Assembly: GCA_050084515.1 (NCBI GenBank)
Contig: CM114271.1
Location: 15,872,001 to 15,936,000 of the forward strand
Direction of reading: 5' to 3'
DNA from: Blasia pusilla
Taxonomy: Eukaryota
Length of the DNA: 64,000 nucleotides
The position numbers were made by a program, and so were the translations under genes. Below are positions 5,288 through 64,000 of the stretch, piece after piece; the first letter of the stretch is position 1, and every line of letters starts with the position of its first letter. The notes below the pieces were generated by a model. It was not told the DNA's origin and made no database searches. It saw nothing but the letters and a program-made list of their open reading frames with translations.

Positions 5288-5425
5288 ATTAGGATCTCAT
5301 CGATTAGATAAACTAGAAGTCCATAGTTGTGCGTGTTGTATGTATGTGTTTTTTAGTTCTTGTCGAGTTGAACCATTTGATAAACATTTTTTTCCTTCAC
5401 ATAACTTGAGAGCTATATTTGTGTA

Positions 5426-16200: not shown

Positions 16201-17299
16201 TGCATATTTTTATTCCTTTTTCCTATATTTAGGTTGCTTTATTTTACATATATTTTATCCTTTTTTACTATGTTTTACTACTTTTTTTCTACTTTCCTTT
16301 CAAAGTCTCAAAATAGCTTTTGACCTCCTATTCTTCTCATACTTTACTATCTACCTATTTTTGTACAAATAATCTTTTATGTTCTAAATTATCAACTTTG
16401 TGGTGTGTTAGGTAGATGTCGAGTGATGGTTGCATATTCTATGGACATGGAGAGATGGCCAATTGTTGTTATCACAAATATACCAGTTCTAATACAGAGT
16501 TAAAAAAGAAAAATGAGAGTATTGAAGCGTACCTTGCCAATGCAAGCCCAATTTGTTTCTGCCATACATTTCAAATTTGGATTTATTTAATGAGAAAGTA
16601 GTGTTCAAGTATATGACTACTAAACATTTTCTTCCTCCACAATTCATGCGTAGACTTCTGTTTCCATCAAATCCCGTGGATTTACGTAACTTTCAAAATT
16701 CATCCGTGCAAAAGCACGACAAAAAAGTTACGCCCATAATAAGGGAATTTAAATTTAGTGCAACAAAAAAACATAGAAAATGAACTCATCAACGATAATC
16801 TCCAACATAAGTTCACTCTTTTCATCATCATTCAACATGATGAATTCTCCACACTTCATACTACCGCACCCTAATCTAATTTCTCTGTTTCAAAAATTTC
16901 CATGTTCAAGACTTCCAATTCCATTGAATCATGTCAATATACATAATATTCAAAAGGTTCTACATGATGAAGCCCAAAAATGCAAATGAGCCATTTGCGT
17001 TGATAGAACGGAAGCTCTCAAAGAAAAAGGAAGAAGAAGAAGAAAAGGTGGGGGAGCGGGGGGGGCAAGGTTGCACGCTCACAAAGTCTGTGTCCGCGGA
17101 CATATGTCCGTCCTAAGAACGGACATGTCCGTGTCGGCCTGGATGCGGACTCCATGACCCCGTGTTGCCTGTGGCCCGCACTCGAGCCCGCGCACACCGG
17201 GCAATCCGCCCTTTCTCGGCTAATGTGCATCACACCTGGCACTTGTTTTTTGGTAAGACCCGTGTATAGCCCGCATGCGGGCTTGCGGGCTCGCGAGCT

Positions 17300-18000
17300 T
17301 ACCACAGTCAACCGCGGTCGATCATTGTGCGTCACTACCTATGATCGACGGCTCGAATCCAATATAGAATCCACCAACAAATCGGAGGGGCGCTCCACTC
17401 TCGCATAAGCCCTCCGCAACACCTCATGTGGTACCAAGTTGGTCCACCAAAGACGCGGGCGGTGTACTCTAGAACCTACACTCGTCGCATCTAACAACAC
17501 TGCCGAGCCGATCCATGCGCGCACCTCTTGTGCACTCATCACCATGCGGGACCTCAAATCGCCCAAAATTGGCACATCTCCAAAATGTATGCTAGAGAAC
17601 AAGAATGATGCTCTTATAAATGTCACAAGATCCGCATCATCTCCCAAAATAACCTGGACCAAGTGTCAGCTAACTCGCTACCTCGTCCAACACTCGATTG
17701 GCCCTGACACGGCCAACCAGAAATGACCAAATCTATGGTCCCTACCCGCTCCAAGTTGTGCGCCCCCAACAATGAAATGTCCCTTGGTAGGGAACTCTCG
17801 TAACCCTGAATGGCGGACGCACACAACAAGTCGGGAAAACGGAGGCGTAACAGTGCCACATGGTGAAGTGAAGTGCACCTTGCAACATCATTAATCTCCA
17901 CACATATGTACTAGTGCACGCACACTCCACCGTGAAAAACAACAGCTAACCCAGTGCTGATCCCTCCAAAGAGATCCAACAGCCAAATACCCTCCTCTAG
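17300..18000 (-). pseudogene. C5 cytosine DNA methyltransferase domain (DNMT3-like), motifs I-VIII, retroelement-encoded
   Basis: Manual translation: LLDLFGGISTG (I), VEIND (II), RDI (III), IDLVISGWPCQGQSSVG (IV, catalytic PC within GWPCQ at 17704-17718), YILE[frameshift]VP (VI, presumed ENV), HRPRLWWTNL (VIII). Interrupted by TAG/TGA stops. Confidence 0.9.
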
Positions 18001-21000
18001 GATGCATCACACAATCAGGGTGGTGTCCAAAAGGATCATAGCAACACTCTTGCCTACTTGGGGTTCCTCTGACCTATCACACTCTAGTGCAAACGTCTCG
18101 CTCCACGCGGTATGCACATGCTCAATGGCTAACTGTCGAAGCTCTTTAGTCGAGCCCCAAGGCGACACCTCTCCTCCACAGACTAATGCGGATATCATGA
18201 CGCTCCTCTTCATAGAGGTGTCAAGAACCGGACATATCCCTCAATCAAATCACTAGACCAAGTGATGGCAGTGCTAAATTTTGCTAAGGTCTCCATCTCT
18301 CCTTGCCGACGCTCGATCACTGCACCTGTGAATCGAACGGGTAAATAGCTAAGGCGCCCATCACCTAACTGCCATCCTGGTCTGTAGGACCCTGACTCCT
18401 CCCAATAATCGAGGGAAAACCCCATCGGGAATAACATTGCTCCACCAACCAAGACGTCGTAGGACTCTGCATCAATCACTATCGCATTGGCTCACACCAC
18501 GGACTCATATGTAGGGTGTCCCGGGAGAATCCTCACCACAACCTCATATTGGATGATATACTGTGTGGTACTCGCTCCACCCAAGGATGTCTATATCTCG
18601 AATGGACAACGCTCCACATCGGCTCTCGTCAAGCCCAATCCTCTCGAATGACACTTTCCCCAACATCAGGGGTTGCGCTCTTGAATCCAACAAGACGCGC
18701 TGCGGACTAAAAGATCTACCTCATGGACTCATCAAGTGAGAGACCTCTCCTCGGTTATCCAGCACAACAACACCAAGAGAAGCCATGGCACGCTCTTTCA
18801 TGGGTCTAGCGGGCATCTCCGCCATCCTAGCAGCCGCAGCCTGCCATGAATCTGACGTGAACGGTCATAGCATCACCTCCTCTGCAATCACCTCTGAACG
18901 TAATGAAGGAACTCCAACTCCACGCTCAAATAGCGTAGCGGCCAACCAAAAAACCTCGGCGGATGTACCTCCCAATGTCATAACATGGGCAACAGAAAAT
19001 AATGGAGCGTGGTATACAACGGTGGCCCCCCCCCAACAATGTGCTCGACACATGCCCCTCGTGAGCATTAACAATAAGAGTCGTTGCACTCGCTTCTCCC
19101 ATCGCCCTCAATGCCTACACACCAACTCTTTAGGAACTGTGATCAGGACCCATTGATGGGGTCATCATCGCCTCAATCAACGTGAAATACTTAGGAAGCC
19201 TTCTCTATTTCCTAGCTTGCCCTCACTGTGGATCCAACTCTACGACTGCTCCACGCATCACAACTGTGGCGGCCTCCATCTGAGCAACCCCGCACATCCA
19301 ACCAGGATCCTCCGTATCTCTGGCTGCTCCATATGATGTCGATGCCAAGGATCCGGCATCAGATAACCTCAATGCCATAGCGGCAATCTGATCCTGTAGC
19401 GGCTGTACCTGAGCAGCCATCCCAGCCTCACGTCTAGCATCTCCCTCAACGCGTCTAGGTGGTGGGACTCTACCTCCTCCACGGGCTGCTCCACCACCCT
19501 GTCGGGCAACTCCAACTCCTTGTCCCCCAATAGGACCACCAAGTGCACGATCTCTAGGCCCACCTCGACCGGCTACTCGCTCTAGTGCCCTCTCTAGCCC
19601 TCGATCCGGACGTAACTAAGGGTGTAAACTGAAACACCTGGCGCGTGTGCGACCATACCTCTGACAATAGTCACACTGATAACCTCCTGGTGTAGCACCA
19701 TCTCCTCCTCCATGCTGAGGCACACGTCGATGACCTTCACGAGTGCAATCACGCTGATGATGGGCTCCACCACATGACCAACAAGTAATTGTAGGTGGCT
19801 ACTACTGAGTTGTATATGAAGGCGCAGGTCTCTATGGCACGGCCTCTCGGTATCCTCCCTGAGCTCGTGGTGCCACATTCAACCTATCTTGGAGTCCACG
19901 TTGCTGCACTGGTGGTGTAGACAATCTTGACTACTCTCGCCCAGAACCCATGGTGGCTACGCTCTCCTCCGCCATGTTGCGCTCAATGTTCTCGGCTGTC
20001 CTAAAAACATATCTGAATGTAGGGGAGGTGTTCATAAGAAGCACTCCCTCCTGCACCCGTGTCCGCAAGGTCTAGTCCAATATCACGTACCATGACTGGA
20101 TAGCCAGAGCCTCTATCACCCCTTGAGTGATGTTGATCAACCGGCGCAAGCGAGTGTAAGCCTCACGCAAACTCTCACTCGGGCGCCTCTGGAAGTCGCA
20201 ACTTCTCTATCCGTAACCCCGTGGTAGCTTGCCCTCAACTCAGCAAAGAACTCAACCACGGGGTTAAACCCGGGACAAACCCGACTAGACGGTGCAACAG
20301 CTCCAGTGCGAGAGACCCCACCTAAAATATCACTAGTGGAAGAGGAAGTAGCCTCTCGTGACTCCTCCTCCTCATCTGGGAACGCCTCTGTCCATGACAC
20401 ATAATGTGGGTCGTAGTAGAGTCGTCATGCCTCAATCTCCAGGGCATATCTTTGGGAGAACTCATGGTAATCGTCCATGGGCGCCCCCTCTAAATGTTGG
20501 AACATACCGTTCCATGCTGTAAACAAGTTGAACTCTCTAGAGTTCCTAGCCCGATGTGAGTCACACTAGGTCCTAAACTCTGCAATGAAGTCGTGTAGCT
20601 CTATTGTGCCTACATCACCCAAACACCACGAAACCCAATATCCCAAATAACTTCCCAATATCTGGAAATCCCTGACATGTAGAGGGTAAGAGACCAGAAT
20701 GGATAACCTCACAATAATATCGATGACGCTCCTTGGCAACTACAAATCTTGACTCCAATTTGGTCGTGAAGATAACTCCTCCAATTAGCAAGTCGTACTC
20801 CTCTTGTACTGGCGCTGCTCAAACCTCCTCGATGTGCGGTGCAGGTTGAGTGGTCCACTGCGGCACTTACGCCATGGAATGGCTACAAATGACATGGCAG
20901 TCGAGAATGGGGTGCAGCACTCGGCAGCATATCCTCCTCAATCAACAATTCACACGCTCTGCACCTTAATGAAGGAGCGGCTCCGCGATCGAGACGGTGC

Positions 21001-21184
21001 GATGCGACCACAAGCGGCACCGTGTAGCAATCATCGGCATGTTGCAGCTACAGGCATCACGGCATGGTACTCGATCATCGTCAAGCCGCTACCAATCACA
21101 ACATAGCAACAAGAAATGAAAACTCAAACACGATAACCGAGGTCACCTGCCATCACTGGTTGATGACGAAACTGCGATGACGGT
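17300..21184 (-). mobile_element. DNMT-Gypsy retroelement copy 1, body (upstream ORF, gag, protease, DNMT); 3'-truncated
   Basis: Collinear with 30440-34440: gag SWTEAFPDEEEESREA..., CCHC knuckle, protease region, DNMT motifs; ends abruptly in hAT subterminal sequence at ~17300. Confidence 0.9.
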
Positions 21185-23409: not shown

Positions 23410-24972
23410 TGATTTTATAGCTCGTGATCACAACTCCATTTTGCTAAAAACTTTGCAAAAGTGCTGCAAACGCAACTTGGGAAAGTTGGACATGATGAAA
23501 AATGAAAAAACCTTCTTTTCATTGAAGGTTTAGTGGTTCGGGGCCAAAACGTACTTACATATTTTTGAGGTTTTGTTCACAACTCAATTTTTGTTGAAAC
23601 TTGGCAAGAGTGGAATATGCACCTTGGAAACCATGTAGAAAAACTTTCAGCTCAAGATGGGAAAAAAGTTAGACAAGGTGAAAAATCAAAAGACTTTTTC
23701 ATTCAAGGTTTAATGGTTCGGGTCCGAAAAGGACTTAGTAATTTTTGAGCTTTTTCTCACAACTCTAATTTTCCTGAAACTTGGCAAGAGTGTAACATGC
23801 ACCTTGGAGACGATGTTGGCCAAATTTCAGCTCAAAATATGAAATTTGGTGAAGATGAAAATTGACAAAAACCTTATTTTGATAGAAGGTTTGATGGTTT
23901 GGGTCCAAAATGGACTTGCCAATCTTTTAGCTTGTGGTCCCAACTGCATTTTACTGGAAACTTGCCTAAAATGCTAGATGCATCTTGGAGACCATGTGGT
24001 CCAAATTTCAGCTCAAGATGGGAAATATGGACAAGGTGAAAAATCATAAGAACTTCTTTTCATTCCAGGTTTAATGCTTCGAGTCCAAAAAGGAGTTAGT
24101 AATTTTTGAGCTTTTGCTCACACTCCATTTTGACTGAAACTTGGCAAGAGTGGAACATGCATCTAGGAGACCATATGGGCCAAATTTCAAGTCAAGATGA
24201 GAAATTTGGACAAGAAGAAAAATGAAACAACCTTATTTTGATAGAAGGCATGATGGTTCAAGTCCAAAAGAACTTGCCAATTTTTGAGCTTTTTGTCCCG
24301 ACTCCATTTTGATTCAAACTTTGCAAGATTCCTAGATGAACTTTGGAGACCATATTTGTCCAAATTTCAGCTCATGAATGGAAAGTTGGACAATATGAAA
24401 ATCATAAGATCTTCATTTCATTAAAGGTTTAATGGTTCGCGTCCAAAAAGGGGTAAGTAATTTTTGAGCTTTGCTCATAACTCCATTTTGATTGAAACTT
24501 GGCAAAAGTGTAACATGCACCTTGGGCACTAGGTGGGCCAAATTTTAGCTTAATATGAGAAATCTGAACTACATGAAAAATGAAAAAACCTTATTTTGAT
24601 AAAAGGTCTAATGGTTCAGGTCCAAAAAGGAATTAGTAATTTTTGAGCTTTTGCTCACAACTCCATTTTGATTGAAACTTGGATAAAGTGTAACATGCAT
24701 CTTGGGCACTAGGTGGGCCAAATTTCAGCTTAACATGAGAAATCTGAACAACATGAAAAATGAAAAAACCTTATTTTGATAGAAGGTCTGATGGTTCGGG
24801 TCCAAAAAGGAGTTAGTAGTTTTTGAGCTTTTGCTCACAACTCCATTTTCTTGAAACTTTCCAAGAGTGGAACACAAACCTTGGGGACCATGTTGGCCAA
24901 ATTTCAGCTTAAGATACGAAAGTTGGTCAAGATGAAAATTGAAAAAACCTTATTCTGATAGAAGGTCTGATG
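23410..24972. repeat. ~180-bp tandem repeat array, ~8.5 copies, inside the hAT
   Basis: Anchor AAGGT(T/C)T(A/G)ATGGTTCGGGTCCAAAA recurs at ~23526, 23705, 23886, 24067, 24245, 24424, 24603, 24783, 24962; cut off by the retroelement starting at 24973. Confidence 0.95.
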
Positions 24973-26131
24973 TGTCACGACTTTTAGGATAGATCGGTGA
25001 GATCTAGTAGAGCGCCTTCATGAGTAGTGGAGGACAGGCTTAGTAGGTTGAGGATGATGTGTTGAGACCCCATAAAACCTGAGAGAGCAGGTTTCCCCTT
25101 CGTTTCGGCTCATTTGGAGCTATATTGAGGAACTTACTATTTAAGGTAAGAACCATTTTGAGTATATGACCAACTTTCTATTTTTGGTAAGATGCCTTTG
25201 ACCTTCTACATCAGGTCAAGAGCCAAGGAGGTGACTTGGGAGCATAGGTTACCAGGGAGAGAGCTTGGGAGAGGGGAGGGGTATACCTCATGGAGAGAGA
25301 GCTTGAGAGGTTATTCTCTCTTTGTTGAACCTCTTGGCATGAGATGGAGGAGCTTTGGTCTTGCTTGCCTTGTGTGTGTAACCCAAGTCTCTCATTAGGA
25401 GAGTGGGTTTGGTTTGACATTGAGAGAGACATGTGAGAGTGCACACATGTGAGAACTATGGTGTTGTGAGAGAGATTGGATCTTATTTTACAAAGAGAGA
25501 ATGAGTAAGTGAGAGAGCTTCATGGGGAAGCTCGCTGGTTGCTCGATGTTTGGTGCAGGTTGGGAGACCGTGTTGCCTGCTTCATGGCTCATGGGAGTGC
25601 TCACCAGAGCAAGATCCGTGCGAGTTTGCAGTTTTGCTTTGCTGAGTTTTTGTACGGGAGAGTGGCACGCGGAAGCGCTGCCAAATTTTCGATATAATTG
25701 AGTATGGGGGCGGGTTGCTCCATGCTGGTGCTCTCGAGAGCACCATGTAGCTTGCTGATTTTTGTTCTCATAGGTTTTACATTTTCGTTGGTAGAAATCA
25801 GCGCGGAAGCGCTGCCAAATTTTGTGTAGGAGAAAGAGACATTGGGCTTTATGACAGTCCCCGCCAATTTTTACTGGAATGTTCAATTCCAAATATTTTT
25901 TATCATTATTGTAGATTGTGAAGCTATGCACACTGTGCAACAAACGGTGCACAACTTGGAGTTGCAAGAAAAAAGTTATGGTTAATCTTGCAAAAATGCC
26001 ATTGCTAGGCGATTTTTAGGGTTAAATTATTCAAACCCTAAACCAGCCGGCGGCGAACGTCGCCTTTGATGGTCAACCCTCATCATCATGGTCAACCATC
26101 ATCGTCAATGGTCCGCCATCACCATCAACTG
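24973..26131 (+). mobile_element. DNMT-Gypsy copy 1, 5' terminal repeat A and leader (continues at 35772-35964)
   Basis: Begins TGTCACGAC; collinear with 61481-62650 and with the reverse complement of 34650-35771; interrupted by copy 2. Confidence 0.88.
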
Positions 26132-29100
26132 TGTCGTGCGCATACACATTGCTACACAACATACATGGCTATCACTGAAGAGGCGCATAAACACGCACGA
26201 TCCTATGCTAACTCATGGCATCCAAACAACGAGACAAGAACTACCAAAATATCTCTAATAAAACAAGATCCAATCTCTCTCACAACACCATAGTTCTCAC
26301 ATGTGTGCACTCTCACATGCCTCTCTCAATGTCAAACCAAACCCTATCTCCTAATGAGAGGCTTGGGTTACACACTAGAGGCAAGTAAGACCATAGCTCC
26401 GCTGCCTCATGCCAAGAAGTTCAACAAAGAGAGAATGAGCTCTCAAGCTCTCTCTGTCCTCCACTACTCACAAAGGCGCTCTACTAGATCTCACCGATCT
26501 ATCATAAAAGATGTGACAGTTTTTGTGCGCATACACATCGCTACACAACATACATCGCTTGTTACCAAACACACACACAAACACACACGATCCCATGCTT
26601 ACTCATGGCATCCAAACAACGAGACAAGAAGTACCAAAATATTTCCAATGGCCCCCCTAGCTAGTGGTTAGGTCCCTCTAACTCTAGATAGCCATCTATC
26701 CCTACCTATCATGACATACATCTCTCGGACGCTAAGAGCAAGAAGGCCGGGTGCTTATGTGGCCCCATCGTTAGTCGCATTCTTATCATCCATGTCATAG
26801 ACACAAGTCGGAATCTAGAACTACCTACTCTATGTACATCTGGGGCACATCCACCGTCCTTCAAGAATTATAGTGAGAGGTGGCGTCAAACATGCCATAT
26901 GCCATCCTCTCGAACACCCATCACAGATTAGCATAGTGGTTGCACAACGGGCCGAACCACACAACATACACCGCAAGCCTGCAGGAACTTTTGCTAAGCT
27001 TTGTTCAATTGTATCGTCAATGTTCGAAAGATGACATGGCGCACAGTTACGCATGTGGTCCTTCCAAACCATACCATCGCGTCCCTCCAATAAGAGAACT
27101 CCAGATGGCAAAACCTCACGCACTCTGAAGATGGTGCGCCCTACTGTCACATCCAACATCGTGGGTGCCGTCTGCTGCAAGTAGACATAGTCTCCTTGAT
27201 GAAAACTCCCGATAGTATGTCGATAATCACCTCCCCAAATAGTCGCATACCTCAACGTATCCTCATGTTGCGCAATCGCCAAATTCTCAAACGCCATGGG
27301 CATCACTCTCGGAAATAACTCAGCCCTCTTAGAACATGCTTGCATCCATACATAAGGGTCATCAAGGTTCAACACCTCACCAGTATCTTGACGAATGGCC
27401 GTTGGTAAATCAAGTTCTCGGCCATAAAGCAACAAGTACGGTGAGAAAGACGCTAAGGATGGTTGCCTGCTGAATCAGTATCCCATCGCCAACCATGGCA
27501 ACTGAAGGTCCCAATCTCCTAGGTGACCTCTCTGCAAGCCATACTTGCGTAGTCCTCTCTTCATCGTCCGTACAACCCCCCCGCTAGTCCATCCACCTCA
27601 GGATGATCTCGCGAAGTAGTGCGGTGGTTGATCAGTGCCTGATCACACAAGGCCTAAAACTCCCCGCGAAACTCTATACCCTGGTTTGTCAACATCTTAG
27701 CTGTTGCATTGTAATGACTCAACACTCGATCTAGGAAGGCATACGCAACTCCCTCACTCGCTTTGTCAAGCAATGCAACCAACTCTATCCACTTCGAGAA
27801 GTGCTTGAACATCACCAACACATAACGACTATGGCGCTCCGTCAAAGGCAAAGGTCCTGCAAAATCCAAACTCCATCTATAACCTAAACCCATGATCGGA
27901 AGTGGATGCAAGTGTGGAGTTGGAGCATTGAATGATGCTCGAACTTGATCACATACCATGCATCTGGTAAGAAACTGCTGAACGTGAGTCTGCATGCCTC
28001 GCCACCAATACTGAATTTGGAGCAAGCTGTACGTCCGCTTCACTCCAAAATGATCCAACTCCTCAAGGGCATGACGCACCAAACATGCTCTCTACGAAGG
28101 ATGAGGCACTACATGCACTCTACCATCCTCCCACACTCGCAACATATGTGTGCCCTCCCATAGAAACCGTGTGGCTCGTTGTAGGATCCAATCCCGCTCT
28201 CTAGAACCCACTGTGCTCGTGACGCTGCCAATACGCAGGTACTCCATGACCACTCCATCGTTGTGAATGTCTTGGCCACCTATCGTCTCCTCACTCGCCT
28301 TTGGATCTAAGAACTCCATCACACCTCGCCATCGAAGTCTCAAGAATCTGGCTCTCTAGCCAACAAGCCCAAATAGGCTGACGCATGCCATCCTGGAACC
28401 AACTCCTCATCACTCTCACCATGCCAATGAACTTAAGTTGCATCTCGGTGACTCGGGCATGGGTTATAGCTCAAACCATATGTATCTTGGTTTAGCGTCC
28501 CAGGTCTATGCACCATCTGGAAGTCATACTCCTGCAACAAAAGAGCCCACCTCGCAAGCTTCCCTCTAAGCTTGTCGGACTCCATCAACCACTTAAGTGG
28601 CTGATGATCAGTAATGATGGTAAAGGGATTGTCGAATAGATAACATCTGAAATATACGACAGCCCATATTGCAACCAAGCACTCACCCTGATACGAGCTA
28701 TACTTTTCCTCTGCAGCGTTGTTCAAGCGACTAGCATAAGCCACCACGAACTCTCTACCAACATGCTCCAATCGGTATGCAACTCAAAAGGATGACCCCT
28801 GATCGGTCTCCTCAATATGGGCGCAGACATCAATCTGTCCTTGAGCATCTGAAATGCTCTCTCTTGCTCATCCCCCCAGTGCCACTCCTGATCTACCTTG
28901 GTCATCAAGGTTAGCGGCTTCGCAATCCAATTGAAACCCTTGACGTACCGTCGATAGACGTTCGCCAATCCCATGAATGCACGAACTCGACTCACATCTG
29001 TAGGGCGTGGAATGCATGAAATAACCTCTACCTTTGTCTGTTGCACACCAAGGTGTATCGTATGATCGAAGTACTCAATCTGGTCATAGAAGAACTTGCA

Positions 29101-32100
29101 CTTGTTTGGATGTAGCTTCAGCCCATGTAACTACAATAGTCGAAACACCTCCTCTAGATGTCGCTCATGCTCCTCAACCGTGGCGCTAAATACTACGATG
29201 TCATCAATATAACACCTGGCAAAATCTAGACCTATCAAGATCCTATCCATGACCCTCTGAAACTCATCCGGGGCGTTCTTTAACCTGAATGGTAAGAACC
29301 GCCACTGGTACAAACAATCCTTCACGTGAGGATCAATGCCCAAAAATGTTGTCTTCTGCTTGTCCTCCTATCTAATAGGCAGCTGATGGTATTTGGCTTG
29401 CAAATCCAATGAACTGAAGACCTTTGCATGCCCAATCGCATCAAAGATCTCCTCAAGGGTGGGCATGGCATACCTTTTTGGCCTTTGTCTGCCGATTGAT
29501 CGGTTGGTATTCTCCACACATTTGCCTATCCGTCTAGTTGCCATCCACATCCTTCTTGGCGGGAATGATAGTGGCAGATGCATACTCTCCATGCAACATC
29601 TCCACTGGCTTGCTCCAACCAAGTTATGGCTCCTACTCTGAATCAGAGCCCTCTCCATGTCGCAGTATATGTAGGGTCGTCTGAAGATTGGCGTGTCACT
29701 CGACAACTCAATGCGGATCGCTTGACCCTTCATTGTACCCAAATCATGCATACTAAATGCAAAACAACTCCTATAACACCCAAGGAAATGGTGTATCCGA
29801 CGTCGCTCTCCTCCTGTCAACTTAGGGCCCATATCTGGCTCCCAAGTCTCCATCGTGACTATGATAGGACTCACCATAGCAACCGCAGACATTCGCGTCT
29901 GTGGTTGCTATGGTGCAATCCCGTCTCGGAAAATAGAACTCCCATCTCCACCTGTAGTACTCGGAACCATGCTCAATGTTGTGGCTATCAACTCTTGGCA
30001 TACCTGAAAAACATCCCAAGAAGTCCAAGGGTGTCACTCCCGATCATCCCTGGTGTGTCGATCTCCTCGGGTCTCGCCCCCAGCCATTTCCTCAACCGTC
30101 TTGGTAGGCATGGGGCTCACCAACGCAACAACTATGATCTGTCATCCTCAAACAACGCTGCTCAGCTAATCCTAAGCTGAAAATCCATGTCAAGTAGTTC
30201 AAGTCCATTGCCTGACCCAAGACATGGCATCATGATGCATCCGATAGTGACAGTACTGCCGTCACTCCTGTGGAGAATCCCATTTCTCGCTCTCGCTCAT
30301 CGACGTTGGGCTCTATCAACCGTTGTAGCTGGTCATCCTAAACCAATCCAGGTCTCGCCTCCTTGAATGCATGGGAAGCGGGAAAACTCACCAATGTGGG
30401 AAAGGCGGCTCGTGGCATGCCAATCCTGTTGACAATAGTCAACGGCGGTCGATCATCGTGCCTCACTGCCTAAGATCCACAGCCCGAATCCAATATAGAA
30501 TCCACCAACAAATCAGAGGGACGCTCCACTCTCGCATAAGCCCTTTGCAATACCTTATGTGGTACCAAGTTGGTCACCAAAGATACGGGCGATGTGGTCG
30601 TGAACCCACACTCGCTGCATCTAACAACATTGTCGTGCCGATCCATGCCTGCACCTGATGTGCACTTGTCACCACGAGGGACCTTGAATAGCCCAAAATT
30701 ACTGCTGCACGCGCACTCTAGCGTGCAAAACAACAGCTAACCAGTGTTGATCTCTCCAAAGAGATCTAACACCCGAATACCCTTCTCTGGGATGCACCAC
30801 ACAATCAGGGTGGTGTCTAAAGGGATCATAGCAGCACTCTTGCCTACTTGGGGTTCTTCTGACCCGTCACACTCTAGTGCAAATGTCTCACTCCACGTGG
30901 TCTGCACATGCTCAGTGGCTAAGCGTCGAAGCTCCTCAGACCATCCCCAAAGCGGCACCTCTCCTCCACGAACTGATGCGGCTACCATGACACTCCTCTC
31001 CATAGAAATGTCAAGAACAAGAGGATCCTCTCCATGGATATGTCCCTCAATCAAATCACTAGGCCAAGTGATGGCACTCCTAAATGTTGCTAAGGTCGCC
31101 ATCTCTTCTTGCTGTCGCTCGATCACTGCACCTGTGAATCGCTAAGGCGTCCATCACGTGACTGCCATCCTGGTCTGTAGGACGCTGACTCCTCCCAGTA
31201 ATCGAAGGAAAACCCCATCGGGTATAATAGTGCTCCACCAACCAAGACGTCGTAGGACTCTACATCAGTCATTATCGCCTTGGCTCACACCACGGACTCA
31301 TCTATGGGATGTCTCGAGCGAATCCTCACCACGACCTCCTGTTGGGTGATATATTGTGTGGTACTTGCTCCACCCAAGGATGTCTACATCCGGAATGGAC
31401 AACGCTCCAAATCAGCTCTTGTCAAGCCCAATCCTCTAAATGACGCTTTCCCCAACATCAAGGGTTGCGCTCTTGAATCCAACAAGACGCGCTGCGGACT
31501 AAAAGCTCTACCTCTAGGACTCACCAATTGGAAGACCTCTTCCTGGTTATCCACCAACACAATACTAGGAGAAACCATAGCACGCTCTATCGCGGGTCTA
31601 GCGGGCATCTCCGCTTTCCTAGCAGCCGCAGCCTACCGTGAATCTGACATGGACGGCCCGAGCATCCGCTCCAAGGGCAGGTCCGTCACCTCTGAACGTG
31701 ATGCAGGAACTCCAACTCCACGTCACATAGTGTAGCGGCTTGCCGAAAAACCTGGGCGGGCGTACCTCTCAACTTCATAACATCAGAAGCAGAAAATAAA
31801 GCAGCGCGGTACACAACGGTGGCCGCCCCCAACAACATGCTCAACACATGCCCCTCGTGAGCATCAGCAATAGGATTCGTTGCACTCGCTTCTCCCATCA
31901 CCTTCCATGCTTGCACACCAACAACATCACCAACTCTCTAGGAACTTTGATCAGGACCCATCGATGGGGTCCTCATCGCCTCAGACAACATGAAAGAGTG
32001 AGGAAGCCTAATCTGTTTCCTAGCTTGCCCTCGCTATGGATCCCACTCTACGGCTGCTCCACGCGTCACAACTACGGCGGCCTCCATTTGGGCAATCCCG

Positions 32101-35100
32101 CACATCCAACCGGGATCCTCCATGTCTCTGGCTGCTCCATATGATGTCAATGCCACACATCCGGCATCGAATAACCTCAATGCCATAGCGGCAATATGCT
32201 CCTGTAGATGATGTATGTGAGCAACCATCCCAGCCTCATGCCTGGGGTCTCCCTCGACGCGTCTAAGTGGTGGGACTCTACCTCCTCCACGGGTAGCTCC
32301 ATCACCCTGTCGGACAACTCCAGCTCCTCGTCCCCCAACGTGACCACTTGGTGCACGACCTCTAGCCCCACCCGGACCGGCTACTCGCTTTGGTGCCCTC
32401 TCTGGCCCTCGGTCCAGACGTAACTCAAGATGTAAACTGAAACACCTAGCGCGTGTATGACAATACCTCTGACAATAGTCACATTGATAACCTCTTGGTG
32501 CAGCACCATCTCCTCCTCCATGCTGAGGCATACGTCCATGACCCTGACGAGTGCAATTGTGTTGATGATGGGCTCCACCACATGACCAACAAGTAATAGA
32601 AGGCGGATTCTGCTGAGCCGCATATGAAGGCGCACGTCTCTATGGCACGGCCTCCCGGTATCCTCCCTGAGCTCGTGGTGCCACAGTCAACCTATCTCAG
32701 AGTCCATGTTGCTGCACAGGTGATGCAGAAAATCGTGACTGCTCTTGCCCAAAACCCATGGTGGCTACGCTCTCCTCCGCCATGTTGTGCTCAATATTCT
32801 TGGCAGTCCTAAAAACATCTCTCAAAGTAGGGGAGGTGTTCATAAGAAGCACTCCCTCCCGCACCCGTGTCTGCAGGGTCCGGTCCAACATTGCGTACCA
32901 TGACTGGATAGCCTAAGCCTCCGTCACCCCCTGAGTGACGTTGATCAACCGGTGTGAGCAAGTGTAAGCCTCACACAAACTCTCATCCGGGTGCCTCTGG
33001 AATTTGTGGATGCTCCGTAACTTCTCCGTCCGTACCCCTTGGTAGCTCGCCCTCAACTCAGCAAAGAACTCAACCACGGGGTTGAACTTGGGACAAACCC
33101 GACTAGATGGTGCAACTGCTCTAGTGCGAGTGACTCCTTCTAAAACATCACTAGTGCAAGAGGAAGTAGCCTCTCTTGACTCCTCCTCCTCATCTGGGAA
33201 CGGCTCTGTCCATGACACACAGTGTGGGTCATAGTAGAGTCGCCATGCCTCAATCTCCTGGGCATATATGTGGGAGAACTCATGTTAATCGTCCATGGGC
33301 GTCCCCTCTAAATGCTGGAACATACCGTTCCATGTTGTAAACGGGTTGAACTCTCTAGAGTTCCTAGCCCGCTGTGAGTCACACCAACTCCTAAACTCCG
33401 CAATAAAGTCGTGTAGCTCTACGCGGTCCTCTATCCCGGTCGTCCATCTCGTATGCCCAACTGGTAGGACCACTCAATATGTACGGTAGATCACTAACAC
33501 ACTCCTCTACACACTCACTCTCGTCTGAAGAGGACACAGAAGAAGATCGTGGTGGTCTCTCACATGGACACCCTCGAAACCTCGCACCACTCCGGGTAAA
33601 CCCTCCAGATCTACTCTCACGTCCATTACCTCGCCTCTCAAAATCGAGAAAGGACGCCGTGATGGCCCTGGTGCCCCTCTCACACAATCACTCTCTATCT
33701 AGTGAGTAATCCCTCAATTGCTCAAACTAAATATGCGACACTCAATCTACACTCTCTCATTGAGACGTGTGTTGTGCGGCAACAAGCAGCGTGGTACGGC
33801 ATATCAACCGATCTATGGTCTCAATGACAAACCATCCTCAACCCTGGACATCCCACACAGGTCTATGTCCCCTAAACCCATACATCATCGATAATACTAG
33901 CATCAGCACGAAACCCAATATCCCAAATAACTTCCCAATATGTGGAAATCCCTCACACGTGCAGGATAAGAGACCAGAATGGATAACCTGACAATAATGT
34001 CGATATCGCTCCTTGGCAACTGCAAATCTCGACCCCAACTTGGTTGTGAAGACAACTCCTCCAATCAGCAAGTCGTACTCCTCTTCTACTGACGCGGCTC
34101 AAACCTCCTCGATATGCGGTGCAGGTCCAACGGTCCGGTGCGGCACGGAACGGCTACAAACGGCACGGCACTCAGCGGCATACCCGCCTCAATCAGCAAT
34201 TCACATGCTCTGCACCTTAGTGAAGGAGCGGCTCTGCAATTGAGATGGTGCGGTGCGGCCATATGCGGCACGGCGCGGCAATCAGAGGTGCGCTGCAGTT
34301 ACGGGCATCACGGCACGGTACTTGATCATCGTCGAGCGGCTACCAATCCCAACATAGCAACATGAAATGAAAACTCAAACACCATAACCCAAGGTCACCT
34401 TCCATCACAGGTAGATGACAAAACTACGATGACGGTGGCGGCCAAACTAAAGTACATGGTGGTAGCCCAAGTCAGAAAATCAACGGTGGTCGTGGAAGAC
34501 CCTCCACTCCGTAATGGCTGCAATAGCAACCAAAGGGTGGACAACGGCCGAATGCGACTCTGAGCAGCACCAGACGATGGCAACGGCCGACAGTGGACCG
34601 GTGATGGTCACAATTGATCGTTGATGGTGTCGACGAACCGTTGATGGTGACGGTTCACCATTGACGGTGACGATTGACCGTTGACCGTTGATGGCGCGGC
34701 GGATGGTTTAGGGTTTGAACAAGTTAACCCTAAAAATTGCCTATGAATGAAAATTTTGCAAGATTCACCATAATTTTTTTCCCAACTCCAAATTGCGCAC
34801 CGTTTGTTGCACAATCTGCAGAGCTTCTCGATCTACGAGAGTGTCAAAAAATATTTGGAATCGGACATTCTTGTAAGACTTGAATGGGATTATCGTAAAG
34901 CCAAATGTCTCTTTCTCCTACACATAATTCGGTAGCGCTTCCGCCCTGATTTCTCCCAACAAAAATGTAAAACATATAAGAACACAAATCAGCAGCTACA
35001 TAGTGCTCCTGAGAGCACCGGCATGGGGCAACCTGCCCCCATACTCAATCCCTATCAGAAATTGGGCAACGCTTCCGCACGCCACTCTTCCACACGAAAA

Positions 35101-35771
35101 ATCGGCAAAGGAAACATCACAAGTAAGCGGCTCTTGCTCCGGTGAGCACTCCCATGAACCGCTGAAGGGGGAATACGATCCCCAACCTGCAAAACTAGCA
35201 ACTGACGAGCGAGCTTCCTCATGAAGCTGTCCCACTCAATCATTCTCTCTTTGTAAAATAAGATCCAATCTCTCTCACAACACCATAGTTCTCACATGAG
35301 TGCACTCTCACATGTCTCTCTCAATTTCAAACCAATCCCACTCTCCTAATGAGAGGCTTGGGTTACACACACAAGGCAAGCAAGACCATAGCTCCGCCCC
35401 CTTATGCCAAGAGGTTCAACAAAGAGAGAATGAGCTCTCAAGCTCTCTCTCCTTGAGGTATACCCCTTCCCTCTGCCAAGTTCTCTCCATGGTAACCTAT
35501 GCTTCCAAGTCACCTCCTTGGCTCTTGACCTGATGTAGGAGGTCAAGGGCCACTTACCAAAAATAGAAAGGTGATCATTGACTTAAAATGGTACTTACTT
35601 AAAATAGCAAGTTCCTCAATATGGCTCCAAATGAGCCGAAACGAAGGGGAAACGTGCTCTCTCAGGTTTCCCAGGGCCTCAGCACGTCATCCTCAAACTA
35701 TTGAGCCTGTCTTCCACTACTCACGAACGCACTCTACTAGATCTTACCAATCTACTCTAAAAGACATGACA
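26132..35771 (-). mobile_element. DNMT-Gypsy retroelement copy 2, near full length (~9.6 kb)
   Basis: Minus-strand ends TGTCATG ... GCGCACGACA; possible 4-bp TSD ACTG/ATTG (one mismatch); complete gag-pol domain series inside. Confidence 0.9.
26830..33700 (-). pseudogene. gag-pol pseudogene: gag-CCHC, aspartic protease, DNMT, RT, RNase H, integrase, PHD finger
   Basis: CDYCQRYCHTRARC knuckle (~32440-32490); VLLDSRAQP protease (~31480); VLDLFGEINTG and DNMT motifs IX-X (30180-30780); RT FSSLDLQAKYHQ and YIDDIVVF; RNase H FELHTD...VVAYASR...ITDHQPL; integrase HFG...CMVC, SLDFAGPLP; C4HC3 PHD. RT-RH-INT order is Ty3/Gypsy. Confidence 0.93.
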
Positions 35772-35964
35772 ATTGTCACTATCAACGGTCAACTATCATC
35801 GTGAACGGTCCACCGTCCACCATGGGCCGCTTTCGTCGCCTAGCGTTGGTCAGAGCCGCGTTCGGCCGTTGTCCACCCTTTGGTTGCCATTGACGCCATT
35901 ACGGAGTGGAGGTTCTTCCACGACCACTGTTGATTCTCTGACTTCCGCCACCACGTACTTTGGT
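35772..35964 (+). mobile_element. DNMT-Gypsy copy 1, remainder of 5' leader
   Basis: Matches 62655-62790; resumes the sequence interrupted at 26131. Confidence 0.85.
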
Positions 35965-58859: not shown

Positions 58860-60150
58860 AGAAAAGAGGAAAGGGTTATATCTTGTTTGTCTAACCCCAA
58901 ATAGGGAATTTCAAGAAGGATCCATTATTATTACATTCTTTGCCATGGGTTTTGGACTTGCATAAAACTTCCTTGCATAGTTGTCATGGGTATATTTGTC
59001 AATACATACATATTTGCCACCATCTAAACCGTTGTTTCTTGCATCCCTCCTCGAGCGTCTAGGCCTCATCGGTACCTTGGGTTTTCCCCAAGCATCTGGT
59101 TGCTCCCACAACCCCAAGTTCTTGGTCACCAAGGATTGGCTCTGATACCACATGTCGTGCGCTTACTCTCCTCGAACGTCAATCTCAATGTTGCCGAAGT
59201 GTACGTTCAGTAGGACACACTCTCATCGCCAAATTGCATCCAGAGGCTTTCACGTTAGTCCGGCTTTGGGTCAAGCGGCTTTCCAACCAGCCGAGTTCTC
59301 AACTCGGCATCTCATCAAGCTCAACCCTCCCTCTTTCTTAGGTTCCCAATACGGGCAAGTCTTCCGAGACTTGAGACAAACTTTCTGGTTAGTCCAAGCA
59401 CCTAAAACGACGTTTGTGCGCCTAGGAGTCCCAATTGTCCAACGAACCTCGCATGAGTTCCCAACCGAGACTCAAAAATATGAGTCGAGAATTGGAATCC
59501 AATAAGGACCTCCAAAATCCACTCTATTGGACTTGGCTCGGGTCTCAAATCCTAACACCAAACTCCCGATCCGTTCCATGCCATTGAGTCGCCCCAAAGT
59601 GGGGTTTGAGCCCCAAGCACTCTTGGAGACCTTCTCTCTTACTAGTACTTATGAGGATCTCCGGGGTCCCCCTAACTTTGGGAAAGAGCACCCGGGCCCC
59701 TCTTTTTGGCCCTCAATCCGACTCCTCTTACAATCGGTTTTTGGCCTATATCTCGGCTTCTAGGCAAGAGTTTGCCAAGATATTTAGTGCATTAGAACCA
59801 ACTTAGCATAAGCTTCCCAACGCTACTTTAGTTGTTCCAAACGCATCTTGGGACTAAAATTTATGGTCAAAAGAACAGTTGGAAAATCCCAAACGCTGCC
59901 CGCATCTCAAGTGCGGTTCTCACCCCTTGGCCGCGTCTTGCCCAAGACTTTACTCCTCTCAAGTCTGAGTTCGGAATTTGGTTCCAGTTTCTTGGTCGTG
60001 ACCATAAACGCATGAAACACTCAAAATGCTCGCCTTGCTCGCATCTCGCCCTTGTGTTTCTATAACTCCAAAGCACAAACCATGCTAGCGTGACCCCACT
60101 AGAGTTCGGATGTTCTACTTGGCGCTCGATTGGTTATGAGGGTCGCGACA
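58860..60150 (-). mobile_element. 5' LTR (59153-60150), tRNA-Met PBS (59136-59150) and short truncated internal region
   Basis: Minus strand TGTCGCGA...GCGCACGACA, 2-nt spacer, then TGGTATCAGAGCCAA, the classical iMet PBS. Confidence 0.9.
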
Positions 60151-61310
60151 CAATGCCTGAAACCCCCCAAAAAACTATGTACCCTGGTCTGTCAACACCT
60201 TAGCTAGTGCACCGTAATGACTCAACATTCGATCTAGGAAGGCATACGCTATTCCCTCACTCGCTTTGTCAGGAAATGCAACCAATTCTATCCACTTCGA
60301 GAAGTGCTCAACCATCACCAACATATAATGACTATGGCACTCCGTCAAAGGTAAAGGTCCCGCAAAATCCAAACTCCATCTATAACCTAAATCCATGATC
60401 GAAAGTGGATACAACTTTGGAGTCAAAGCATTGAATGATGGCCGGACCCGATCACAAACCATGCACTCGGCAACAAACTGATGAACGTCGGTCTGCATGC
60501 CTTACCACCAATACTATATCTGGAGCAAGATATACATCCCCTTCACTCCAAAATGACCGAACTCCTCATGGGCATGATGCACCAAACGCGCTCTTTGTGA
60601 AGGATGAGGCATTACACGTACTCTACCATCCTTCCAAACTCGCAATACATGTGTTCCGTCTCATTGGAACCGTCTGGCTCATTGTAGGATCCCATCCTGC
60701 TCTCTAGCACTCATTGTGCTTGCGACCCTGCCAGTACGTAGGTACTCCAACACTATCCCATCGTCAAGAATATCTCGGCCACCCGTTGTCTCCTTACTGA
60801 CCTCTAGATCTAAGGACTCTCCATCAGACTTCGCCATCGAGGTCTCAACAATCTGGCTCTCCATAGTCAACAAGCCCAAATAGGCTGACGTGTGCCATCT
60901 TGACACCAACTCCTCATCATTCTCACCATGCCAACAAGCTCCACTCGCATCTCGATGACTCGAGCATGGATTATGGCTCAAACCATGGTGCATCCTGGTT
61001 GAACGTCCCAGTTCTATGCACCACCTGGAAGTCATACTCCTGCAACAAAAGAGCCGACCTCGCAAGCTTTCCTATAAGCTTGTCGGACTCCATCAACCAC
61101 TTAAGTGGCTGATGATCATTAATGATGGTAAAGGGGTTACCGAATAGATAACACCTAAAATATGTGACAGCCCATACCACAGCCAAGCACTCACCCTCAT
61201 ACGAGCTATACTTTGCCTCTATAGCGTTGTTCGTGTGACTAGCGTAAGCCACCATGAACTCTCTACCATCATCGTCATGCTGGGTGAGCACAACTCCAAG
61301 CCACAACATG
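60151..61310 (-). pseudogene. RNase H-integrase fragment of the DNMT-Gypsy family
   Basis: Highly similar translation to 27654-28771 (VAYAS..., DHQPLKWLMESDKL, YRWSLDFAGPLPLTE). Confidence 0.9.
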
Positions 61311-61480
61311 CTCCAATCAATATGCCAAATTCAATCATGGAAATCGGGCACACATACAACCATATCCAACAAGTCTCCAATAACTCACATCACAAAGTTC
61401 TCGCCTATGTTAAACCAAACTCATTCTAGTTATGAGAGATGTATTGTTACTAACAAGGCAAGCGACATCATAGTTCCACG

Positions 61481-64000
61481 TGTCAAGACTGTGAGGATAG
61501 ATCTGTGGGATCTAGCATAGCGTCTGCATGGGTAGTGGAGAACAGGCCCAGGAGGTCGAGAATGACTTGTTGAGGCCCCAAGAAACCTGAGAGAGCATGT
61601 TTCCCCTTCGTTTCGGTTCATTTGGAGCCATATAGAGAAATTTACTATTTTTGGTATGTTTGCATGTTGGGGATGGTTGACTTTCTACTTTGGGAAGTGG
61701 CCCTCGACCCGCTATAGCAGGTCAAGAGCCAAGGAGGTGATCTGTGAGCATAGGTTACCGATGAGAGGGATTGGGAGAGGGAAAGGGGTATACCTCCAAG
61801 AGAGAGCTTGAGAGCTCACTCTCTTTGTTGAACCTCTTGGCATAAGGCCGCGGAGCTATGGTCATTAGTAACCCAAGCCTCTCATTAGGAGAGTGGGTTT
61901 GGTTTGACATGAGAGAGAGTGCACACCTTTGAGAGCTATGGTGTGAGATGGTGTAGAGAGAGATTGAATCTTACTTTACAAAGAGAGAATGAGAGAATGA
62001 GAGAGTGAGAGAGCTTCATGGAGGAGCTCGATGGTCACTCGTTGCTTTTGCAGGTTGGAGACCGTGTTCCCCATTCAGAGGCTCATGGGAGTGCTCACCG
62101 GAGCAAGGGCTGCTTTGATTGTTCTTTGCATTTGCCGATTTTTTGTGTGGAAGAGTGGCGCACGGAAGCGCTGCCCAATTTTTGATAGGGATTGATTATG
62201 GGGACGGATTGCCCCATGCCGGCACTCTCGGGAGCACCATGTAGCCTACTGATTTGTATTTTTATAAGTTTTGCATTTTTTTTGGGAGAAATCAGTGCGG
62301 AAGCGATGCCGACTTTTGTGTAGGAGAAAGAGACATTGGGCTTTATGACAGTCCCCGTCAACATTTACTGGAATGTCCAATTCTAAATATTTTTTGACGT
62401 TGTCATACATCGTAAAGTTGTGCACGTTGTGCAATAAACACTGCGCAATTTGAAGTTGCGAGAGAATGGTTATGGTCAATCTTGCAAAAATTCCATTGCT
62501 AGGCGATTTTTAGGGTTAAATTGTTCAAACCCTAAACCAGCCACCAAGCCGGCGGCGGCCATCGCCGTCATAGTCACCATCAACGGTCCGCCGTCGAGAG
62601 TCAACCATCACCATCAACGGTCAACCGTAATCGTAACCGGTCGGCCGTCACCATCAACGGTCAATCATCACCGTCAACGGTCCACCGTCCGTTGTCCACC
62701 CTTTGGTTCCCATTGTCGCCATTACGGAGTGGAGGGTCTTCCACAATATTTGTTGATTCTCTGAATTACGTCACCACCACATACTTTTTTTTGGCCGCCA
62801 CCATCATAAAAGTTTCGTCATCAACCAATGATAGCAGATGACCTTTAGTTATGGTGTTTGAGTTTTGATTTCATGCTGTTATGTTGTGATTGGTAGCCGC
62901 TCGACGACGATCGAGTACCGTGCCGTGACGCCAGTAGCCGCAACGCGCCGTGACGCCCGTAGCCGCAACGCGCCGCCGATTGTTGCGACGTGCCGCTTGT
63001 GGCCGCACTGCACCGTCTCGATCGCAAAACCGCTCCTTCACTAAGGAGAAAAGCGTGTGAATTGTTGATTGAGGAGGGTATGCTGCCGAGTGCTGCACCC
63101 CATTCCCGAGTGTCCTGCTCTTTGTAACCGTTCCATGCCGTCAGTGCCGCACCAGACCGCTCAACTTGCACCGCACATCGAGGAGGTTTAGCACCGTCAG
63201 TACGAGAGGAGTACGAATTACTGATTGGAGGAGTTGTCTTCACGACCGAGTTCGGGTCGAGATTTGCAGTTGATGAGGAGCGACATCGATATGTGTTCAG
63301 GTTACCCATTCTGGTCCTTTATCCTGCACGTATGAGGGATTCTCATATTTGGGTAGTTTATTTGGGGATATTGGGTTGTAGGGATGCTAAGAGCATCATT
63401 CATGTATGTCGTTTAGGGGACATAGACCTGTGTGGGATGTCCGGAGTTGAGGGTAGGTTATCGATGAGATGACAGCCAAGTCGATTTTCCCCACCACGCC
63501 GCGTGTTGCCGCATGTTATACGTCTCGGGGAGGGAGAGTGTAGATCGAGTGTCGCATGTTTGGGATGAGTGATTGAGGGATTACTCGCGAGGTTGAGAGT
63601 GATCAGGTGAGAGGGGCACGAGGATCATCACGGCGTCCGTTCGGGACTTTGAGAGGCGAGGTGGTGAACCCGAGAGTAACTCTAGAGGTTTTACGCGGAG
63701 TGGTGCGAGGTTCCGGGGGTCTCCACATGAGGGACCACCTCGACCTCCTTCTGTGTCATCATCAGACAAGGGGGAGGGTGTAGAGGAGTTTGTGATCACA
63801 TCGCCACACATTGTGAGTGGTCCTACCAGTTGGGCGTACGAGATGGACGACCGGGGTAGAAGACCGTGTAGGTTTTCAGGTGCAGTAGGCACGATTGAGT
63901 TGCTCGATTTCATAGCAGAGTTTAAGAGTTGGTGTGACTCCCAGCGGGCTAGGAACTCTAGAGAGTTCAACCCGTTTACAGCATGGAACGGTATGTTCCA
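61481..64000 (+). mobile_element. DNMT-Gypsy family copy: 5' repeat A, leader and start of gag; runs off the window
   Basis: Begins TGTCAAGAC; collinear with the reverse complement of 33310-35771. The DNMT domain itself lies outside the window. Confidence 0.88.

Follow-up and report, generated by a model that had tools for sequence, protein, structure and literature searches.

A PHD finger ends the integrase of a Ty3/gypsy-like retrotransposon family found in liverworts and green algae

A 64,000-nucleotide stretch of the genome of the liverwort Blasia pusilla (assembly GCA_050084515.1, contig CM114271.1, positions 15,872,001 to 15,936,000 of the forward strand; hereafter the window, numbered from its first letter) carries a Ty3/gypsy-like long terminal repeat (LTR) retrotransposon whose integrase ends in a PHD finger. 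The copy in the window is decayed, and the fusion that it preserves is a family trait across liverworts and many chlorophyte algae. The PHD of intact copies is under purifying selection, and its conserved residues place it in the structural class that grips the N-terminus of histone H3 without an aromatic cage. We propose that the PHD of working copies is a chromatin tether which biases integration toward nucleosomes lacking trimethylation of H3 lysine 4 (H3K4me3), a reading to which we assign a probability of about 0.55.

The integrase reading frame ends in a complete PHD finger

The finger forms the C-terminal end of a minus-strand open reading frame (ORF) of 214 codons at 26830..27474. Two features define it:

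26836..26970, minus strand: PHD finger, C-terminal integrase module of 45 residues (PF00628, pattern scan, AlphaFold2 (AF2) model, Foldseek)
26830..26832 (26832-26830), minus strand: TAG stop, after a single Thr codon beyond the last zinc-binding Cys

The first Cys codon lies at 26970-26968 and the last at 26838-26836. The ligands within 26836-26970 on the minus strand are spaced C-x2-C-x11-C-x2-C-x4-H-x2-C-x14-C-x2-C, a complete C4HC3 set. The ORF closes with C-M-L-C ... I-C-D-G-C-S-R-G-W-H-M-A-C ... W-M-C-P-R-C-T-stop, with Gly two residues before the His and Trp immediately before it. PF00628 matched ORF residues 169-213 over profile positions 1-47 of 47, at E 6.2e-10 and 39.4 bits (curated Pfam threshold, 24 bits). 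The same 214-codon ORF aligns to the integrase tails of full-length relatives, which puts the PHD in frame with the tail. The first-pass annotation, made from the letters of the window, had described such a complete, in-frame C4HC3 finger at 26833-26970. It was accurate in this respect: the domain lies in a single ORF, the quoted residues are correct, and so are the coordinates, which include the final Thr codon.

A six-frame regular-expression scan and tblastn of the whole window revealed a single C4HC3 pattern in the 64 kb. When the window was shuffled in blocks by mononucleotide, a stop-free C4HC3 pattern arose in 0 of 200 shuffles. The AF2 model of the 214-residue tail (mean predicted local distance difference test score, pLDDT, 83.7; 88-95 in the PHD part) runs from a long helix through a small beta-barrel (strands within residues 96-146) to the PHD. 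The finger thus follows directly upon the integrase beta-barrel module, where chromoviruses carry a chromodomain, as had been supposed. Chromo had no match at E<=0.01 in the integrase region of the window (Pfam), and the PHD stands in its place. The window domain is a genuine PHD finger ending a Ty3/gypsy-like integrase.

The fusion is widespread and under purifying selection

A phmmer search with the 214-residue tail, run against a database of 1.84 billion representative sequences (clusters), returned 4546 matches at E<=1e-3, of which 823 passed 1e-10 and 214 passed 1e-30. The alignment reached query residue 210 or beyond, and hence through the PHD, in 145 of the 150 phmmer matches listed. 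A PHD followed the integrase core domain (rve) in all 22 full-length relatives scanned, and PF00628 was present in 120/120 and 118/120 among the matches listed in two homologue listings. The closest named proteins come from Marchantia polymorpha (75% identity) and Calypogeia fissa and are labelled 'hypothetical' or 'PHD-type domain'; for annotation, this means that such liverwort 'PHD-type domain' hypothetical proteins are integrase tails. Named algal members belong to Haematococcus, Tetrabaena, Volvox, Pleodorina, Chromochloris and Chlamydomonas reinhardtii. The integrase-PHD fusion is therefore a family trait across liverworts and many chlorophyte algae.

The C4HC3 ligands were kept in 251 of 273 stored relatives, 183 of them with the exact spacing of the window. 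In a 36-sequence alignment the zinc ligands were invariant, and D, G, L, P-P, P-x-G and W were kept in at least 90% of sequences. Among intact bryophyte-type loci, nonsynonymous over synonymous divergence (dN/dS) in the PHD was 0.019/0.153 (L002 vs L003) and 0.020/0.151 (L003 vs L004), a ratio of about 0.1. From 21 locus pairs, two were without synonymous change, and dN was smaller than dS in all 19 informative pairs; these pairs are non-independent and the PHD offers only 45 codons. The PHD is under purifying selection in intact copies. The first-pass annotation had let its proposal depend on conservation in other copies, and the finger proved to be conserved across a large family.

The C-terminal context of the finger differs between clades. 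In the close clade of the window element the PHD lies 1-13 residues from the stop, whereas many chlorophyte-type members continue for about 100-500 residues beyond it. In P0098 (residues 181-255) and its relatives, AF2 predicts a helix and a five-strand barrel after the PHD at pLDDT 90-97. Pfam is blank over this algal barrel except for a sub-threshold Tudor hint (E 0.032). Foldseek results for the region were dominated by the PHD, and the sole match in a wide structural search was Spindlin-4 (Z 6.7, root-mean-square deviation (rmsd) 5.1 A). The modelled barrel, absent from the liverwort clade among the relatives compared, may be a second reader domain. The beta-barrel that precedes the PHD, in the model of a relative, resembles Tudor/KOW/SH3-like barrels (Z 6-8).

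In decayed metagenome copies (L006, L007, L010, L012, L017-L019, L060-L062 and others), Gln, Arg and Trp codons of the PHD have turned into stops, as expected from deamination of methylated cytosines.

A Protein atlas cluster combining integrase zinc-binding, PHD and integrase core domains is commonest in Mollusca (score 0.78). As a lead, this cluster hints that animals too have integrase-PHD fusions, which would agree with the PHD-retrotransposon fusions of cnidarians noted in a preprint on PHD/Chromo-transposable element fusions across eukaryotes.

Conserved residues indicate an H3 N-terminus grip without an aromatic cage

The best sequence matches of the window PHD in the PDB were CHD4 PHD2 (1.7e-13), PHD1 of Lid, KDM5B and KDM5A (about 1e-12) and BHC80 (4.8e-11), followed by PHF12, DPF2/3, KAT6A, ATXR5, BAZ2A/B, UHRF1 and AIRE. 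BPTF, ING and TAF3 were absent among the 60 best. Foldseek single-domain matches superposed at rmsd 0.5-1.4 A over 45-49 residues (DPF2, ATXR5, BAZ2A/B, UHRF1 and BHC80), and fold matches included complexes with unmodified H3K4 or H3 (BAZ2A 4q6f, UHRF1 3zvy, ATXR5 5vab and BHC80 2puy). Tudor-PHD cassettes ranked top with high rmsd, because the integrase barrel plus PHD mimics them.

The AIRE and KDM5B papers name the residues by which such fingers can be classed. PHDs that read H3K4me3 use an aromatic cage (BPTF W32, ING2 W238, TAF3 W891). AIRE has D297 and A317 in place of the cage; unmethylated K4 is salt-bridged by AIRE D297 and KDM5B D308, H3 R2 is held by AIRE D312 and KDM5B D328, and the backbone of AIRE P331-G333 anchors the peptide N-terminus.

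Columns corresponding to these contacts were read in the window PHD, in 11 close and in 172 other relatives. The cage column, which we take to be the position two residues before the His, is Gly in the window, in 11/11 close and in 159/172 other relatives (170/183 overall), in agreement with the earlier remark that the cage Trp is lacking. The C-D-x-C Asp, the R2 contact, is present in the window, in 10/11 close and in 159/172 other relatives (169/183 overall). The Pro of P-x-G is kept in 11/11 close and 171/172 other relatives (182/183 overall) and is Leu in the window. Conserved aromatic residues are limited to two Trp, the core one preceding the His and one preceding the seventh ligand. Because the Gly of the cage column, the R2 Asp and the P-x-G Pro are conserved, the family PHD is assigned by its residues to the class with an H3 N-terminus grip and no aromatic cage.

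An intact relative encodes a DNMT3-like methylase

Metagenome locus L003 is an intact relative of the window element with three reading units: a gag-like ORF1, an ORF2 with protease and methylase, and an ORF3 that holds the PHD-bearing end of pol. ORF3 encodes reverse transcriptase (RT), RNase H, integrase and PHD in one ORF of 1047 residues, the PHD at 990-1034. ORF2 (2477-4663) and ORF3 (4664-7807) share a frame with one stop between them (4661-4663), an arrangement that resembles read-through gag-pol systems; ORF1 overlaps ORF2 in a different frame. The ORF2 methylase matched PF00145 at E 5.4e-12, and its best PDB matches were the catalytic domains of DNMT3A/3B/3C (E about 2e-7). A domain scan of ORF2 gave no match to ADD or PWWP.

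The DNMT3-like domain precedes RT in the clade of the window (also in L003, P0165 and P0101) and lies between RNase H and integrase in many algal-type members. This difference in placement between clades implies that it moved within pol or was acquired twice. The members examined for methylase placement were P0021, P0043, P0048, P0055, P0145, P0165 and P0101.

Proposed role of the PHD and alternatives

Our data suggest, at roughly 0.55, that the PHD of working copies tethers integration to chromatin. The cage-less finger would bind the free, unmodified H3 N-terminus (A1 and R2, with unmethylated K4 in most family members). It would then hold the integrase-cDNA complex on nucleosomes lacking H3K4me3, and this tethering would bias insertion away from active promoters. 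We favour this reading because of the chromodomain-like placement of the PHD, the purifying selection on it and its membership in a class that binds free H3 tails. Chromodomains at the integrase C-terminus reportedly direct integration (Gao et al. 2008, as cited by others). Gypsy-7a_cRei, a PHD-bearing Chlamydomonas element, produced 86 new laboratory insertions, with 10 in coding sequence and intergenic insertions at 2.6x the expected frequency (PMC9940879).

Several points weigh against this reading. The window PHD reads A-G-L-R before the first Cys, without the K4-contacting acid. Asp or Glu occurs within five residues before the first Cys in 1/7 of the close clade vs 156/222 of the wider family; at position -3, Asp is found in 102/222 of the wider family and Gly in 7/7 of the close clade. 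The first loop has 0-1 acidic residues in the close clade and mostly 2-4 elsewhere. In the window PHD, moreover, the P-x-G loop reads Leu-Glu-Gly, its near-invariant Pro replaced by Leu, and an extra Cys stands at loop position 9, in a broken pol. The likeness to readers of unmethylated H3K4 (H3K4me0) claimed in the first-pass annotation therefore holds in part: the nearest solved relatives by sequence and fold are of this kind, whereas the K4 acid is absent and the window has lost the P-x-G Pro. Since the K4-contacting acid is missing there, K4me0 selectivity is least secure in the clade of the window. Within the tether reading, we put true K4me0 selectivity in the liverwort clade at no better than even, and the close clade may instead read R2/A1 without K4 selectivity, or something else.

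The remaining points concern target choice. Histone binding, the mark read and the effect on target choice are each argued by analogy. The bias of Gypsy-7a_cRei could reflect selection or targeting, according to its authors (PMC9940879), and we liken that element to the window family by its description as a PHD-bearing Gypsy, not by placing it in the family. The first-pass annotation had also pointed to copies inside other transposable elements (TEs). This is true as a description, and the TE-rich setting of one window is uninformative on target choice, as it does not separate targeting from survival in gene-poor, TE-rich DNA.

An unlikely alternative is that this PHD-type cross-brace finger binds a ligand other than H3, such as LTR-end DNA, a host tether protein or a nuclear-import or intasome partner. 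It would suit the close clade, whose first loop carries basic or small residues and which is without the K4-contacting acid. Precedents exist as well: the PHD-like finger of piggyBac transposase (the cysteine-rich domain at its C-terminus) binds DNA sequence-specifically (PMC5861402), and the UHRF1 PHD also binds non-histone peptides, its PAF15 and Stella complexes being among our fold matches. What argues against it is the conservation of the H3-gripping residues (the C-D-x-C Asp, the preceding hydrophobic strand, the P-x-G loop and the late Trp), together with the fact that the close solved relatives are all histone-tail readers.

We consider it quite improbable that the PHD serves the DNMT3-like methylase of the element, replacing ADD as the H3K4me0 reader so that the element methylates chromatin or itself. 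The methylase is certainly encoded (PF00145 at 5.4e-12 in L003 ORF2; fragments in the window). L003 ORF2 has no ADD or PWWP match, and both domains belong to one gag-pol reading unit with one in-frame stop between them in L003. The first-pass annotation was right that the ADD domain of DNMT3 reads H3K4me0 (PMC5575660). Its suggestion that the PHD steers methylation nevertheless finds no support in the distribution of the two domains. Among the 22 scanned relatives, all had the PHD and 8 had PF00145 (5 above cut-off), leaving 14 in which the PHD is kept without a methylase domain; most rows of the two homologue listings, among the matches listed, likewise had PF00628 without PF00145. The two domains lie at the two extremes of the polyprotein, where protease processing would be expected to part them, and the methylase changes place between clades whereas the PHD stays on the integrase tail.

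Many PHD fingers read H3K4me3 and some retroelements prefer promoters. A PHD that reads H3K4me3 and sends insertions to active promoters is nonetheless very improbable here, given Gly at the cage position, the lack of an aromatic cage, and no BPTF, ING or TAF3 among the 60 best PDB matches. Finally, a chance pattern, or a host exon captured by the window copy alone, has nothing in its favour except the degeneracy of that copy and is refuted by the 0/200 shuffles and by hundreds of database clusters with the same fusion.

If correct, the tether reading would allow target-site choice to be tested for a histone reader that is not a chromodomain. Good chromatin maps exist for the host group, and an active algal relative has already given dozens of dated insertions. 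Natural variants with and without the K4-contacting acid, the second barrel or the methylase provide ready-made comparisons. A more far-reaching scenario, which we regard as quite improbable, is that one Gypsy lineage, from chlorophytes to liverworts, swapped the chromodomain for a reader cassette and repeatedly gained a DNMT3-like domain, yielding a self-contained module. Such an element would find H3K4-unmethylated chromatin, integrate, methylate its own new copy and hide in silent chromatin. This would amount to a transposon-borne copy of ADD-DNMT3 logic, to which the algal cassette would add a Tudor-like barrel.

The window element is a decayed copy

The element carrying the PHD is a Ty3/gypsy-like LTR retrotransposon at about 26259-35774 on the minus strand, in the order gag, protease, DNMT3-like methylase, RT, RNase H, integrase and PHD. 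Its parts were located by tblastn of the intact relative L003 and of proteins P0157 and P0165 against the window:

26259..26521, minus strand: 3' LTR remnant of 263 nt with internal deletion (197 nt 92% identical to the 5' LTR, plus its first 68 nt)
26971..27576, minus strand: integrase C-terminal region, with long helix and small beta-barrel, then the PHD; in-frame stop at 27475-27477 (integrase tails of relatives; AF2)
27582..28292, minus strand: zinc-binding domain and catalytic core of the integrase, lying in a different frame and with 2 stops (PF17921, rve, tblastn)
28358..28783, minus strand: RNase H (PF17917, E 1.3e-24; tblastn)
28759..29859, minus strand: reverse transcriptase with 2 in-frame stops (RT of P0157, P0165 and L003 ORF3, by tblastn)
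30134..30699, minus strand: C-terminal half of DNMT3-like cytosine methyltransferase (tblastn, P0165 and L003 ORF2 residues 435-621)
31147..31611, minus strand: aspartic protease region, 2 stops (tblastn, L003 ORF2 residues 25-181, which have weak Asp_protease matches)
32418..33092, minus strand: gag-like region, 3 stops (tblastn, L003 ORF1, 24% identity, E 1e-9)
34620..35774, minus strand: 5' LTR, beginning TGTCA in the sense of the element (self-comparison, end alignment)

Upstream of the tail ORF, the ORF at 27654-28091 matched PF17921 (Integrase_H2C2) at E 4.3e-12 and rve at E 1.4e-4 and 22.5 bits, the latter under the Pfam cutoff of 32.6. The N-terminal half of the methyltransferase is deleted in the window copy. 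Compared with the intact relative, the ORF3 equivalent (RT-RNase H-integrase-PHD) is broken into 4 pieces (frames 0/1/2/0) and interrupted by 6 in-frame stops. An old, dead copy, the window element has no function of its own. Its PHD has two odd codons, at 26944-26946 (CGT to TGT, Arg to Cys) and 26863-26865 (CCT to CTT, Pro to Leu). Each is one C-to-T change from the usual Arg or Pro of the clade, which fits the decay of a methylated dead copy by deamination of methylated cytosines.

The 3' LTR remnant lies ~310 nt downstream of the PHD stop in direct orientation with the 5' LTR, and a full-length inverted LTR copy adjoins it. A DIRS-like inverted-repeat architecture was considered for the element and, given this direct remnant, seems the less likely layout; a nested LTR accounts better for the rearranged ends. 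Among 15 related loci, direct repeats flank the PHD in two (L061 and L012), starting ~350 nt after it, and the other 13 loci examined showed no flanking repeat.

The ends themselves (24972-26649 and 34446-35964) are rearranged or nested. A 124-nt piece occurs twice, once on each side of the 3' LTR remnant (26136-26259 and 26525-26649). Just beyond the 5' LTR border, at 35777-35964, the 185 nt from its inner side (34446-34629) reappear in inverted orientation. About eight tandem units of 179-180 bp, similar to one another at 62-93%, occupy 23474-24972 and directly adjoin the inverted LTR copy.

Other family copies and neighbouring elements

Further pieces of the family lie elsewhere in the window:

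24972..26129, plus strand: full-length LTR copy, inverted, adjoining the 3' LTR remnant, nested or rearranged (84% identity to 34620-35771)
17210..21184, minus strand: second copy, truncated, with gag, protease and the N-terminal half of the DNMT domain (85% DNA identity to 30437-34436)
60148..61324, minus strand: third fragment, with RNase H and integrase core, ending before the PHD (85% identity to 27645-28764; Pfam)
61470..64000, plus strand: fourth copy, with LTR and gag, in opposite orientation and running off the window (77% identity to 33316-35782, inverted)

The second copy has a PF00145 match (E 2.6e-7) at 17626-17910, within a DNMT fragment spanning 17210-17994, and has neither integrase nor PHD. 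The window scan found a PHD in none of these other three family fragments (17210-21184, 60148-61324 and 61470-64000).

The window is TE-dense, with a CACTA-type transposase, a 179-bp satellite, a PIF1 fragment, an RT fragment and four family pieces, some of them nested or abutting. The tnp2/CACTA-type transposase, with DUF4218, lies at 1885-4373 (plus strand), the PIF1-like helicase fragment, possibly from a Helitron, at 44790-45107 (plus), and the further reverse-transcriptase fragment at 52289-52645 (plus). A 1-kb repeat occurs in two 80% identical copies, at 12252-13260 and 59147-60148; the latter cuts the third retrotransposon fragment exactly at its integrase.

Expression

In three RNA runs labelled with the same species, 128-193 reads matched at 95% identity or more, of which only 3-6 reached 99%. 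The plus strand held most of the first mates, which for a usual stranded library indicates RNA in the sense of the element; depth over the PHD bin was 0.4-1.1. The reads come mostly from related copies, transcribed at a low level, and have little bearing on the window copy.

Comparison with known systems

PHD fingers in retrotransposons, including Chlamydomonas Gypsy elements (PMC9940879), PHD/Chromo-TE fusions across eukaryotes (the preprint cited above) and Gypsy-DNMT3 elements in streptophytes (PMC5890265) are already in print. Our literature searches found no report of a retrotransposon PHD binding unmethylated H3K4. They also found no description of a terminal integrase PHD in liverwort or Gypsy-DNMT3 elements, and none of the cage-less class assignment or the clade-specific loss of the K4 acid; relevant material may also stand in Craig's thesis, in the REM1 paper, or in figure 4c and the PDF supplements of the 2018 paper by de Mendoza et al. 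The Chlamyvir clade was considered as a PHD carrier and rejected, since two papers on it describe chromodomains, with 0 mentions of PHD.

REM1 (Perez-Alegre 2005) is reportedly a PHD-bearing Chlamydomonas Gypsy element. The Chlamydomonas protein CHLRE_09g398141v5 consists of RT, RNase H, a gap of ~600 residues, integrase, a PHD at 2032-2076 and 280 further residues, and is 53% identical over integrase and PHD to the algal family member P0048. Chlorophyte members share this ~600-residue insert before the integrase and a post-PHD extension with a confidently folded barrel, whereas the PHD is terminal in the liverwort clade. Gypsy-7a_cRei resembles the window family as a green-lineage Gypsy with a PHD in gag-pol, and its authors suggest a role for the PHD in avoiding harmful insertions (PMC9940879).

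Gypsy-DNMT3 (KnitGypsy-Dnmt3 of Klebsormidium nitens), compared by description, is similar in having a DNMT3-like methylase in the pol of a streptophyte Gypsy. It differs in its ends: DIRS-like repeats are reported for it (PMC5890265), whereas the window element and two related loci look like ordinary LTR elements. The main text of de Mendoza et al. 2018 has 0 mentions of PHD, and 'PHD', 'PF00628' and 'Gypsy' are absent from its text supplement (PMC5890265).

The cage-less H3 readers (KDM5A/B PHD1, CHD4 PHD2, BHC80, AIRE PHD1, UHRF1, ATXR5 and BAZ2A/B) are the best sequence and fold matches. They share with the family PHD the C-D-x-C Asp, L-x-P-P-L, P-x-G-x-W-x-C-P-x-C and a non-aromatic cage position. 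AIRE and KDM5B differ by the K4me0-binding acid before the first Cys, missing in the clade of the window. These readers are host chromatin proteins, whereas the window family carries its finger on a transposon protein.

The ADD domain of DNMT3A and DNMT3L couples H3K4me0 reading to a DNMT3 catalytic domain (PMC5575660), and in this respect parallels the window family. It is a composite of GATA-like and PHD-like parts beside the catalytic domain, in contrast to the simple family PHD, which is located on the integrase, ~1000 residues distant, and in most relatives persists without a methylase.

Chromoviruses such as MAGGY and Tf1 likewise end their Ty3/gypsy integrase in a small histone-tail reader that immediately follows the beta-barrel. 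The expected role, integration tethered to a chromatin state, is also alike. The reader itself is different, a zinc-binding PHD in the window family in place of the chromo barrel, and so is the expected ligand, which would be the unmodified H3 N-terminus in the window family as opposed to methylated H3K9 (H3K9me) for the chromodomain.

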